A stretch of 22,731 nucleotides of DNA from a virus (lineage: Duplodnaviria; Heunggongvirae; Uroviricota; Caudoviricetes), in the IMG/VR virus record IMGVR_UViG_2526164602_000021; one strand, written 5' to 3'. Made by a program: the position numbers. This document shows positions 9,001-15,000 of this stretch, one piece after another (position 1 is the stretch's first letter; each line of letters opens with the position of its first letter).

Positions 9001-12000
9001 GGTCAGTCGCATGGCAGCCCCCTTCATCCGGGTTAATGCCTCGCCCGGGATCAGTTCACCGTCCTCACGAATCACCTTATCCCGGCTGCCCTGAATGTAG
9101 GCCAGCAGCACGGCGGTAGCCTGACGAACCTTGTCCATCAGCATGTCATCATCCGCGTCATGGTCGACACGCAGATGTGCCTTGATCTCTTCCAGTGTCA
9201 GTAATGCCGTCATTTTCCGCCTCCTGCATCCCGTCCACGTTTGGCAGCCAGGGTCCAGCCTGATGAATGAGCTTCTCCGGGTTTATCACCGGTCATACTG
9301 TTGCAGTGCCACAGCGAGCCCCCCCACGTCACCGTATCACCGGGGTGGTAGGTTTCACCGGCTCTGAACACACCGCGGTAGAGCATCACCGGCAGGGAAA
9401 ATGTTTTTTCCGTACGCTGGCCACTGCTCTGCCGGACCACCACAGTGAACGACCGTTCGCCGGTCATGCTGACGTCAATATCGGCCACCCCGTCAACCAG
9501 GCATTCCCATCCCCGCATCCCGTGCGTTTTTTCATACGCCCGCCAGAGTCCGCCCTGGTGTGTGGCATACGTGCCCCGGGGAAAGGATTTTTGATCGTCA
9601 ATGGCGGGGATTATTTCCAGTGCCGTGGCATCACGCCCGTCCTGCGGAGCCGGCATCGGGATCATAGTCACGACCATCACGCGGAACAGGAATATGGCTT
9701 ACCGCCTCTTTCACCATCTGTTCAAGCATCGGACGCACATCATCGGGGGTAATACTTTTGCCGTCCGCCGGTACCGGAATATTCGCAACCGCATCATTCA
9801 CCGCCTGCTTCAGTACTTCCGGATCATAATCACGACCGTCACGCGGAGCAGGGATATGGCTTACAGCCTCTTTCACCATCTGCTCAAGCATCGGACGCAC
9901 ATCATCGGGGGTGATACTTTTGCCGTCCGCCGGTACCGGAATATTCGCAACCGCATCATTCACCGCCTGCTGCAGTACATCCGGATCATAATCACGACCA
10001 TCACGCGGTACCGGAATGGTCCCCACAGCGTCATCCACCATCGCCTGCAGAACCGGATGTACCTCATCCACCGTCACATGCTTCTGTAATACCGCCGACA
10101 GGGAAGCCAGTTTCTCTTCAAACGCTTGTGCCTGCGCGGCCATCTTCCCCTCAAATGTGCGCTGTAAATCCGCCAGCACCGTGGAGAATTCTTCGCCCAG
10201 TGCACGAATAATGGACAGTTCCCGTTCCGTCATTTTCTCAGTATCCCCCTGAACATCGCTTTCACTGCATCATGCTCTGTTTCACTGATTGCCTTATTAC
10301 CGTCAGATGCGCCGTCAGGCAGTTGTGCTGAAACTGTTTTCCCGGCCGACGCGAACGGGTCCTCACGGGCATCACGACGGGACAGCGCCTCCAGACTGTA
10401 GTTCTGCTGCTGAAGATACAGTGCATCACCGCCGGCAAGGGGCGGCAGGTTCTCACGTTTACGGGCCTCATTGGGCGTGAGAAGCGTATTTTTCACCGAT
10501 TCACCCAGTGTTTTCATGCGCCGTTCGCTGTCCATTCTCAGCAGCGTGGTGACGTCAAACTCCGTGCTCTCGTTTTCCCCCGTTTCCAGCGCCTCATCCA
10601 GTAACAGCTCAATGGACTCAATCAGCGTCTGCAGACACTGGGAATAATACTGCTGCTCCAGCGCCTCCACGTTGTCACTGGAAGGCGGGTGGCCAACGCC
10701 AATCTTGTAGGCCGGGACACGGAACACCGAACAGACAATTTCAGCCGTCATTTTCAGTTGTTCCACCGTCTGCGCATCCACCGGTGAAAACGTCGTGGGG
10801 CTGTATTTTGCCCCGTTGCTCAGTATGGCCGTCTTCCCGGCATTTTCGCCCGTATATCCGCTGTCCCAGTTCCCCTTCAGTTTTTTCGCGTTTTCTTCCG
10901 TAATACTGCCGGGGACCTCAATCACGCCTGATGGTCGCCCGCCATTTCTGAAAAAATACGTCGAATTTGCCTGAATATGATGCCCCTGCATGGCGGCCAG
11001 TCCTGCGGCATACACCGGCGGCAGCCCCACAAGCGGATGAAAAAAACAGTTAAAACGGTCGTGGATCACCTCCCGGGCAGGCACCGTCACCGACTCTGTG
11101 ATCCCACAGTTCCGGTCCGGCGTGATGCGGTAGAACACCTCGCCGTCATCCGCCACCAGAGGTTCAACCCGGTTCCAGTCCAGAATACGCAGTTCTTTGA
11201 TCTGCCCCCGGGGGGTGCGGATTTTCAGCACCACCGTATTGCCGTGACGCAATTTGGAATTCAGCCACAGTTCAAAAAACTGGATGCGATTCTGCTGCGC
11301 ATTAGGACGACGACAGAGACGGGCAGTATCTCCCTGCCGCTTTTCCCGGCGTATTCCCTGTACATCAGTCTGCATCAGGCGAAGCCGCATTTTGGCAATA
11401 TCCTGGGATATCAGCGAAATGCATGAAAACACCGCGTGAAAGGACAAAACGGTTTCCGGATCGGCTTTCACCCCCTGCTGCCAGGCACCGGCAAAAGGCT
11501 CAGCCACCGCCTGAAACAGGGACCGCCAGCCCACTTCTCTTACGTCACGTCCTGATTTCTGGTTTTTTCGGGTTCGCCGCAAAAGGTTCCACATTCGCCA
11601 TGCTCCGCATCACGTTTCTTTTTCTGACCTGCCGGACGTCGCGCTGTGATGTACTCCGCCTTCCCCAGGCGAACCAGCACCTCCGCACACGGCTGTGCCA
11701 CATCACGGATATCCCCGGCCCGGGCATCATGCGTGCCCTGCAGATACTGGATTTTTGCCATCTGTTACTGCGGGAAGCTCGCGCCTCCCGCCCTCCTCAT
11801 CAGACTCAGCCGCCGGACGCACTGCCGTAGTTCACTCCGGTGATCACCGCCACCGCCGCGGTACGGCGACGACGCCAGTTGATCCAGCGCTCCGCACGGA
11901 TGGCCACGCTGCCTGTCTGGAACATGGAAACCAGCTCCACCGGGGACGGCGTGGTACTGTCGCCGGTCGGCTCAGACTGCATTTCCAGTGATGCTTCACG

Positions 12001-15000
12001 GGACATATCCACTGCCACGCCGCCGTCATCCGCCAGATAAATATCCGGGGCATTCACCAGCACCAGCTGGTCACCCACGTACTGGGAGACAATCACCGGC
12101 AGCCCCTGGAAGGAGCCACCCAGCAGGGTCATGTCCGGGTATTCCTTCTGACCCAGCGCATTTTTACGCATGGACAGTGCCAGGGCATTGGTGCTGGACA
12201 TCAGCCAGACCGCACCGGTGGGCTGCAGGTTTGCTGCCACAAACTGTCCAAACGCAGCCTCTGCATCCGCATCCGGGTTACCGGTTGATGCCGTGCCCTT
12301 CACATCATGGGTGATGGACGCCGGGGAGACATCTGCCACTGCGGCTTTTTTCGGGTCCACAAAGTCTGTATCCAGACGCGCCACCACCGCTTCCGCCAGC
12401 GCATTACGGACCAGTGCATCAGCAGCCGGACTGGAAAAACGGATCAATTCTTCCGTCAGTACCGCAATGGCCGACACCTTCGCATGACTGAAGGTGATGG
12501 ATTCAAAATCAAACTTCGTCAGGGGTCTGGCCTTACCCTCACCCACCCAGCCGGCAGCACCGCCGGACACCTGGGCGTGCACACGGATATTGAACGGCAC
12601 CTGACGAAGTGCAGGGATCCCGCCCTGACCAAATCGCCCGATAATGGTCTGCGGACGCAGGTAATCAATAAAGTCCTGTGCGTATTCCTGATATTCAGAC
12701 AGGCTGCCTGCCCACTGCGGATCCGTGGTGGTCCCCGCGCCCACTGCCGATTTCAGGACATGATGCAGACAACTGTCATCCGGATACTGACGACGGGCCA
12801 CTTCCAGGGCTTCAGATCGGACGCCTTTAGCCGCAGCCAGCGATTTGGCAAAGCGGGCGAAGCCAATCCCCTTATCCAGTTTCTGCTCCACACGGATCAC
12901 CGGCGCAGAAGCCACCGCGGCCACATTCCCGTTACCGGCCTGTTTCACCGGCTGCGCCGTGGCGGCCTTACCGGCTTCCAGTTCACGCAGGCGCTTCAGG
13001 TGCGCATCCACCTGACGGATTTCCGCTGCGGTGTTGTCGTAGTGCTCTTCCTCCTCCACATCCAGCGTGCGCCCTTCCTCTGCGGCTTTGGTCATGACCT
13101 CCTCAAGGGAGGCTGCCAGCGCTGCACGCTTGTTTTCAAAACTTTTAATCTGTTCGCCAATATTCATTATGGTCTTTTCCTTATGAAAAACGGTTGTTGA
13201 CTGTGCCGCAGCGCCGGCAGAAGATGCGATTTTCACCACCGGTTTCCGGTTGCCGGACGCGGCAGAAAACGGGCGGTCGTAAGATTTAATGGTCCGGATG
13301 GTGCATTCCGCATTCGCGGGCACGGTGACGGCAGACACCTCCATCAGTTCCCAGCGCAGAAAATGCAGTCCGCCTCCGTCCAGAAAGGTGTATTCATGGG
13401 GACGGAAGCCCACGGACAGCCCCCTGACCAGCCCGGTCTTAATGGCCGCCCAGACCTCATCCAGCCGGGCAGCCAGTTGCGACGGCATATCCGGTACGGG
13501 CTTCACCAGTGTTGCCGTGATTTCCAGCCCTTCGCTGACCCGGCGTACCGTACACTGCCCCACCGGGCGGGAATGGTCATGCTGCCAGAGAAACGGGATC
13601 GCACTGCCAAACTCCGCGCCCTCCGGCTCCAGGATGTCACCATCCCGATCCGGAGAAGGCGTTGACGCAATCCCGGTGATCACCCGTTCATCCTCACTGA
13701 AGGATTTCACCGTCAGCAGGGAACAGGCCCGTTTAAGAGTCACATCAGCCTCCTGAAAATAAAAAAACCGCCGCAGCGGTTCATGATGGTTACAGTGTGA
13801 ACAGGGTTATATGAGAAAAACCGCATATTCTTTCTTTTTCGGTTCCGGGTTAAGGGACATCAGGGAGACCGCATTGAACAGCGCCATCAGCGGGTCAATT
13901 TTTCCCCGTCCACTGGCCTGTTTGGTGATAAGAATGGCGTTACCTTTAGGCTCCACCCGGGCATTGCCGACACACCAGGCCATCAGGGGCTGGTCACCAT
14001 GCACCAGCACCCCTTCAGCCAGTTTGCGCTCGGTGGTTTTAATGGCCCCGCCCAGTTTCCAGCCCTGGCTTATCCCCACCACAATTCCGTCGGGGATCCC
14101 GGCTTCCGCCAGTGAATCCAGAATCTGCCCCACCCCTGACGGGTCAATACCGATATGGTCCAGTAACTCAGCCTCATGAATGCGACGCACATATTCCGCC
14201 ACTTCCGCCGTGTCATCCCCGACACGCCGGACAATGGTCATATCTCCACAGGCAACAAGATCCTGAAACCGGGACGCCTCGCTCTTCCGTCGGACCACCG
14301 CGGTTTCATGCGCCCAGGCATGGCCCCAGCCCAGCCATTCGCGGGTTTCCCTGTCACGGCCAATCACGTACATTCCCAGCAGATCATCCAGGCCCCCGCC
14401 GTCAATCCCCACCGTCACCACATCAGCGCGCTGCAGGATATCGTCCAGGCTGACGCGCCTGCCCTGCTGCTCCCAGAAATCCGCACCCGCCCAGCGGTCA
14501 GAACGCAGGGCAAGACCAATTTCCACATTGGCATGTTTTGACATGAAGCCACGAAATGCTTCCTCACCAGCCTCCCGGGCTTTACGGTACTCCCGGTACA
14601 GAAAAGCCTCATCCACCGAATAACCGAGATTCGGGTTAACCATGGCGAGGTTTTCCATCAGCAGGTGAGCCCCGCTTTCCACCATTTCAGGAGGATGCTC
14701 AAAAATCACCGGCAGAAAGTGCGGATCATGAATTTTGCCGTCGCGCACATCCCGGGCATACTGCAGTTTCTGTCTGAACACCCCGGCGGGCGGTTCATTC
14801 GACTGGGTGGTCGTATACACCACAAACCCTTCCGGACGGGAGGCAAGCCCGCCGATGGCTTCACGTAGCATGTCTTCCGCCTTGTACTGCTTGCCAAACA
14901 GCCACAGTTCATCAATCAGAGTCCCCACGGACTTGATACCGGACACCGTATTCGGATCGGCTGCCACCACCTTCAGGGTGGTGTCCGTCACCCGATGGGT

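Follow-up and report, generated by a model that had tools for sequence, protein, structure and literature searches.

We analysed a stretch of DNA of 22,731 nucleotides (nt) from a virus of the Caudoviricetes (Duplodnaviria; Heunggongvirae; Uroviricota), IMG/VR virus record IMGVR_UViG_2526164602_000021, which we refer to as a whole as the window. Its minus strand holds a phage late operon, in which one open reading frame (ORF) of 645 amino acids (aa) joins a prohead protease domain to a putative delta (scaffolding) domain and an HK97-fold major capsid protein. We propose that this fusion ORF is probably a nested gene that yields two proteins, in the manner of the lambda C/Nu3 pair. Initiation at the GTG codon at position 13743 would give the full-length protease-delta-capsid protein of 69 kDa, and initiation at an internal, in-frame ATG at position 13167 would give a delta-capsid protein of 48 kDa, which is what relatives with split genes make from their capsid gene. 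The proposal is built on signals that are conserved at the protease-capsid junction of related phages, namely a start codon, a motif resembling a Shine-Dalgarno (SD) sequence and weak mRNA folding.

Conservation at the protease-capsid junction

The candidate internal start in the window is codon 193 of the fusion ORF (Met193). It is preceded by an AAGGA motif that the initial annotation had located about 13 nt upstream, a fair description of a motif that spans 15 to 11 nt upstream of the ATG. The duplex energy of this AAGGA with the anti-SD sequence is -6.2 kcal/mol, and 12.7% of the positions of the ORF score equally well. The GC (guanine plus cytosine) fraction from -30 to +10 around ATG 13167 is 0.30, compared with 0.60 for the ORF, a value within the lowest 1.1% of the sequence windows considered. 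As the SD motif is unremarkable when taken alone, the case rests on the comparison with relatives.

We assembled a junction set consisting of the window, 18 genomic loci and 80 IMG/VR loci, the latter chosen on motifs away from the junction, which together provided 73 distinct junction sequences. An in-frame start codon stands at the beginning of the delta domain in all 73 (ATG in 69, GTG in 4), and each of these starts has an SD-like motif 5-12 nt upstream. The motif occupies all three codon registers, in 38, 29 and 6 cases, and the residues that it encodes differ between lineages (K-E, K-G, Q-G, M-E, E-E-G), which points to a constraint on the nucleotides rather than on the protein. An anti-SD energy of -5.3 kcal/mol or better was found at 93% of the junctions and at 17% of 948 other in-frame ATGs of the same ORFs (Mann-Whitney p = 4e-32, related sequences being counted as independent). 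Among the 39 junctions whose identity is about 52% or lower, AAGGAGG or GAGGAGGG is the usual motif, and the median SD energy reaches -9.8 kcal/mol, corresponding to the top 0.5% of ORF positions. Moreover, the mRNA is weakly folded between -30 and +30 at the junction, with a median z of +2.45 relative to other windows of the same ORF and a z above 1 in 68 of the 73 sequences.

The protein alignments are consistent with these observations. In Burkholderia phage vB_SBP39, whose capsid gene stands alone, the aligned counterpart of Met193 is Met1 of the capsid protein (MNIGEQIK in the window, MTIAEKIK in vB_SBP39). Met193 also aligns with residues 1-3 of four capsid-only homologues (P0198, P0230, P0249 and P0262), which begin at query residues 193-194. 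All 16 fused enterobacterial homologues compared have this Met, and the residues immediately before it vary freely. When the fused representatives of 141 clusters formed at 50% identity were examined, a Met (129 cases) or a Val (12 cases) was present within a 10-residue junction window, the chance expectation for Met being about 22%. A second conserved Met, 24 codons downstream, is not accompanied by a conserved SD and served as an internal control. This Met (Met217) was also considered as an alternative internal start because GAGGAGG lies just 2 nt before its ATG in the window (13093-13104, minus strand; -8.1 kcal/mol). We rejected it, as that distance is too short and relatives keep the Met but lack the motif, which is probably incidental.

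Altogether, these comparisons suggest that ribosomes also start inside the fusion gene and thereby yield a protease-free capsid protein. An internal start at 13167 had been put forward tentatively in the initial annotation, and the alignment with split genes, the start codon, the SD motif and the weak folding in relatives support it by way of comparison. The annotation had further taken this ATG to mark the capsid N-terminus. This is right for the capsid precursor, which would begin with the delta domain, and wrong for the mature capsid protein.

Relatives with separate protease and capsid genes

In some relatives the protease and the capsid protein are encoded separately, and the differences from the fused forms are minimal. 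In one junction locus (L082) a single in-frame stop placed directly before the junction ATG splits the protease from the capsid, and in another (L092) the ORFs are kept apart by in-frame stops. The TAA stop codon of vB_SBP39 overlaps the same motif (TAAGGA), and Moraxella phage Mcat5 has a 4-nt overlap between its two genes. A nearest-neighbour test found the split forms scattered among the fused ones with no grouping, a result that is only suggestive given a fused to split ratio of 141:9. Such easy movement between the fused and split states would be simplest to understand if the capsid protein were initiated independently in both.

The proposed mode of action can be outlined as follows. Both products would contain the delta and shell domains and are therefore expected to assemble together into the prohead. 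With every full-length subunit, one protease domain would enter the prohead interior, and the ratio of initiation at the two starts would therefore set the dose of protease per prohead. Once the shell has formed, the protease would cut away its own domain together with the linker and the delta domains, as happens in HK97. The analysis shows the ORF, its domains and fold, the gene order and the conserved signals at the junction; we infer the use of the internal start, the co-assembly, the cleavage events and the initiation ratio. That most subunits are made without a protease, with a minority of full-length ones, and that this arrangement had not been described before, are two things which together we regard as falling slightly short of probable.

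Domain anatomy of the fusion

The initial annotation had described one in-frame ORF joining a protease to a capsid protein, and domain searches on both halves, which it had recommended, matched named families and confirmed the description (the limits of the domains are given in Table 1). Both Pfam matches exceed the curated cut-offs. Peptidase_S78 (PF04586) covers aa 48-152 with 34.7 bits (cut-off 21; E 2.4e-8), and Phage_capsid (PF05065) covers aa 386-635 with 53.8 bits (cut-off 24.2). The protease half also matches PHROG 80, "head maturation protease", with an E of 1.6e-41. Two of its residues, H55 of the WQHD motif and S110 of GLSVGF, each show at least 90% conservation across 150 homologues with 36-57% identity. 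They fit the His/Ser pair of the S78 proteases, on the assignment made for HK97 gp4, and we consider them as candidate catalytic residues. PHROG 617, "major head protein", covers the entire ORF (E 1e-261, profile positions 7-626 of 626), so that an entire family of phage proteins has the fused architecture.

An AlphaFold model built from 150 homologues had a mean pLDDT (predicted local distance difference test) of 86.8. The protease domain is compact in this model (pLDDT above 94 over aa 20-150) and the C-terminal domain is well predicted, and the linker is predicted to be disordered, with a pLDDT below 50 across the 33 residues of aa 158-190. Met193 stands two residues ahead of the first predicted helix of the delta region. 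The helices of this region are predicted at residues 195-223 and 229-262, and residues 267-281 again have a pLDDT below 50. The helices and the disordered stretch fit the pattern expected of an HK97-type delta domain, a helical domain of about 90-100 residues that precedes the shell and is lost at maturation, and the disordered stretch is likely to be the maturation cleavage region. We place the boundary between delta and shell at about residue 280 from the model rather than from a mapped cleavage site.

Foldseek related the model to the capsid structures of Bxb1, D3, HK97 and T5 (E 3e-14 to 1e-9, probability 1.00). The best 50 Foldseek matches were all capsids, and the protease fold was not recovered among them. 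A sequence search of solved structures gave a weak match to the Bxb1 capsid (9d9w, E 0.004) and none to a protease.

A common head gene of Stx-phage-like prophages

The fusion is neither rare nor new. A tblastn search with the protein against 50,697 phage records retrieved it at 95-99.8% identity in 92 of them, mostly Stx1 and Stx2 phages including BP-4795, 2851, 1717, YYZ-2008 and JLK-2012, under labels that vary from "putative major head protein/prohead protease" and "phage prohead protease" to "major capsid protein" and "capsid and scaffold". ORF56 of BP-4795 and its equivalents in these phages and in prophages of enterohaemorrhagic Escherichia coli are the same gene, with this identity extending over all 645 aa. 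BP-4795 has the same neighbouring genes in the same arrangement (TerS, TerL, the fusion, a small ORF and the portal), and the window differs from BP-4795 in nothing substantial except that the gene after the portal, ORF59 in BP-4795, is shortened and out of frame. The prophage is thus lambdoid, Stx-phage-like and of the BP-4795 type, and the window ORF is its head-assembly gene. The 8-kb stretch 9000-17000, which comprises the head and packaging genes, was matched in 1492 of 5426 complete E. coli genomes, at a median of 4 places per genome.

Further away, fused homologues at 73-77% identity are present in other Enterobacterales (Salmonella, Enterobacter, Klebsiella, Serratia, Kosakonia and Pantoea), and 141 of the best 149 matches among the 50%-identity clusters are full-length fusions with 36-54% identity, in a proportion that is skewed since ranking on the full-length score favours fused proteins. 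The cluster to which the 645-aa ORF itself belongs has 9916 member sequences. Three proteins of about 1080-1094 aa (P0001, P0123 and P0133) have extra N-terminal sequence before the protease-capsid part, and one of them, P0001, additionally carries a TerL ATPase domain (PF03354). The three may represent read-throughs across terminase, protease and capsid, or artefacts of gene calling or assembly.

Gene order and neighbouring genes

HK97 encodes its protease gp4 and its capsid protein gp5 in two genes that follow the portal gene, the protease first. The window has the equivalents of gp4 and gp5 fused and the portal gene after the capsid gene, and its ORFs and domains, together with related loci, bear out the order of terminase, capsid and portal claimed in the initial annotation. 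The order TerL, protease-capsid, portal was found in 91 of the 91 related loci with enough downstream sequence, and a TerL homologue lies upstream of the fusion in 84 of 95 with enough sequence. The same order is kept in vB_SBP39 and Mcat5, although their protease and capsid genes are separate. The comparison with related prophages that had been suggested thus recovers both the fusion and its order. It also corrects the initial annotation, which had treated them as a departure from the norm: both are conserved and already annotated in this phage lineage. The gene order differs from that of HK97 itself yet is the norm for the lineage, and it is, like the fusion, already known and extremely common.

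The features of the window are collected in Table 1. An HNH endonuclease gene next to TerS is typical of HK97-like cos packaging modules. The 73-aa ORF between the capsid and portal genes matches PHROG 829 (E 8e-39), a family with no annotated function, and a small ORF occupies the equivalent place in vB_SBP39, Pseudomonas phage PAJU2 and Mcat5. The 63 nt that separate terL from the fusion contain a terminator-like hairpin (13765-13782, minus strand; GAACCGC-TGCG-GCGGTTT and then TTTTATTTT). It is the sole such site in 11400-14000, but shuffled sequences contain 2.4 on average and the count is not significant.

Table 1. Features of the window around the protease-capsid fusion gene
Feature	Position	Strand	Remarks
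Full-length ORF	11806-13743	-	645 aa, 69.0 kDa (calculated); GTG as start codon; stop codon counted in the coordinates
Shine-Dalgarno AGGAGG	13749-13754	-	5 nt upstream of GTG 13743; read from the sequence
Prohead protease domain, Peptidase_S78	13273-13695	-	aa 17-157; candidate catalytic His55 and Ser110
Linker	13168-13272	-	aa 158-192; predicted disordered; sequence-variable; A-rich 3' end
SD-like AAGGA	13178-13182	-	begins 15 nt and ends 11 nt upstream of ATG 13167; 10-nt spacer
In-frame ATG, codon 193	13165-13167	-	proposed internal start; 453-aa, 48.2-kDa (calculated) delta and capsid product
Putative delta (scaffolding) domain	12904-13167	-	aa 193 to about 280; two long predicted helices, then a disordered stretch
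HK97-fold capsid shell domain	11809-12903	-	aa about 281-645, 38.8 kDa (calculated)
HNH endonuclease gene	16317-16682	-	just upstream of TerS
TerS	15465-16028	-	
TerL	13807-15468	-	directly upstream of the fusion ORF; PF03354 and PF20441
73-aa ORF	11540-11761	-	between capsid and portal; overlaps the portal start by 55 nt; corresponds to BP-4795 ORF57, where it is annotated
Portal	10230-11594	-	downstream of the capsid gene; PF04860, E 3.5e-79
Repeat-containing gene	9210-10233	-	after the portal
gp6-like head-tail connector	8887-9213	-	

The gene that follows the portal is broken. ORF 9631-10233 (200 aa) and ORF 9210-9680 (156 aa), which overlap, match the N-terminal and C-terminal halves of PHROG 1289 and of the single 461-aa ORF59 of BP-4795, and a 162-bp tandem repeat in 2.2 copies lies inside the gene at 9654-10017. 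The gene is 362 nt shorter than in BP-4795, a length that is not divisible by 3, and the reading frame is therefore disrupted, either through prophage decay or through a repeat that collapsed in the assembly. The ORF 9210-9680 also has a near-threshold match to CBM_5_12 at aa 106-128 (24.7 bits, cut-off 26.2). The PHROG label of this gene, "portal protein", looks like a mislabelling because the real portal is the preceding gene.

Discussion

Several observations weigh against a nested gene. The internal SD of the window is modest (-6.2 kcal/mol with a 10-nt spacer) and, by itself, within chance, and that of the upstream start is far stronger (-10.3 kcal/mol for AGGAGG), albeit with a GTG codon. 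Most enterobacterial relatives have an upstream ATG whose SD is stronger than the internal one, so that SD strength alone predicts no excess of free capsid protein in them. The A-rich, weakly folded linker could also partly reflect a disordered peptide rich in Lys, Asn and Thr instead of selection on the mRNA, and the statistics of the junction set treat related sequences as independent.

The strong upstream sites of many enterobacterial relatives and the unexceptional internal site of the window would also suit a gene that makes only the full-length 69-kDa polyprotein. Protease and capsid would then be produced 1:1, and the protease would be trimmed after assembly or released by cleavage of the linker. 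Met193 and the purine-rich motif before it would be kept for reasons of the protein, for instance because cleavage takes place there or because delta begins with that residue, and Lys is common in the linker just before Met193. P2 gpO, a protease-scaffold protein, is described as a single product (bioRxiv 10.64898/2026.09.13.751334). We nevertheless consider the polyprotein unlikely. A motif kept for the protein would hardly be expected in three registers, coding different residues according to the lineage; the DNA loci that lack a Met at the junction use GTG in 4 of 4 cases; and the junction is among the least folded windows of the mRNA. Moreover, a single stop codon interconverts the split and fused forms, which would entail a drastic change of stoichiometry if the fused gene gave a 1:1 ratio only. 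On a rough estimate that assumes T=7 as in HK97, about 415 extra protease-linker modules of 21 kDa would crowd the prohead.

It is far less probable still, to the point that we give it almost no weight, that the fusion arose as an artefact or is a pseudogene in decay, its separating stop or frameshift lost by sequencing error or prophage decay. The apparently broken gene nearby (9210-10233) and the existence of split relatives could be cited in its favour. The ORF is, however, uninterrupted in 116 phage records, inducible Stx phages included, and in homologues from 99.8% down to about 38% identity. The size of its own cluster and the presence of the same fused architecture in at least 141 clusters at 50% identity also speak against this explanation, and we rejected it.

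The nested gene that we favour can be compared with several known systems. One of the closest is ORF003 of PAJU2, annotated as "structural protein; prohead protease fused capsid protein", which is fused and 48% identical over its full length. The order in PAJU2 (terminase, fusion, small ORFs, portal) matches the window, and its internal ATG is codon 197, preceded by CAGGAGGG. PAJU2 differs in its host and in an internal SD that is far stronger, -10.8 kcal/mol compared with -6.2 in the window. The likeness to HK97 gp4 and gp5 lies in the protease family, the capsid fold and the kind of N-terminal helical scaffolding domain. In other phages, one gene combining protease, scaffold and capsid is a recognised annotation, and their likeness to the window is one of annotation; PHROG 4523, "major head and protease protein", matches the window protein weakly (E 1.6e-11).

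Lambda C/Nu3, UL26/UL26.5 of the herpesvirus HSV-1 and gp17/gp17.5 of the archaeal virus HFTV1 are nested protease/scaffold genes, in which the long product contains the protease and an abundant in-frame internal product shares its C-terminus; through this shared C-terminus the protease is attached to the shell as it assembles, and its dose is set (bioRxiv 10.64898/2026.09.13.751334). The window resembles them in having a conserved in-frame internal start, with an SD-like motif, at the beginning of the assembly protein. The short product is a free scaffold in those systems, whereas in the window it would be a scaffold domain together with the capsid protein. The protease families also differ, that of the window being S78. 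We found no description of internal initiation in protease-capsid fusions in the literature searched, although an earlier one in a subscription journal is possible, and the same literature held no relevant ribosome profiling or proteomics for the fusion family or for BP-4795-type heads.

The gene itself is routine, being among the commonest prophage head genes in pathogenic E. coli, and its conserved internal translation-initiation region is the sole element that may be new, as a variant of a known strategy. The internal 453-aa product carries no annotation in the BP-4795 and PAJU2 records that we inspected. If the proposal is true, one stop codon gained or lost could convert split and fused forms into each other, since both keep the capsid start, and the logic of lambda C/Nu3 and herpesvirus UL26/UL26.5 would extend to HK97-type capsids, in which the scaffold lies within the capsid protein. 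The junction signals conserved over about 100 loci and 141 clusters would offer a simple, testable answer to how these phages avoid making one protease for every capsid subunit.

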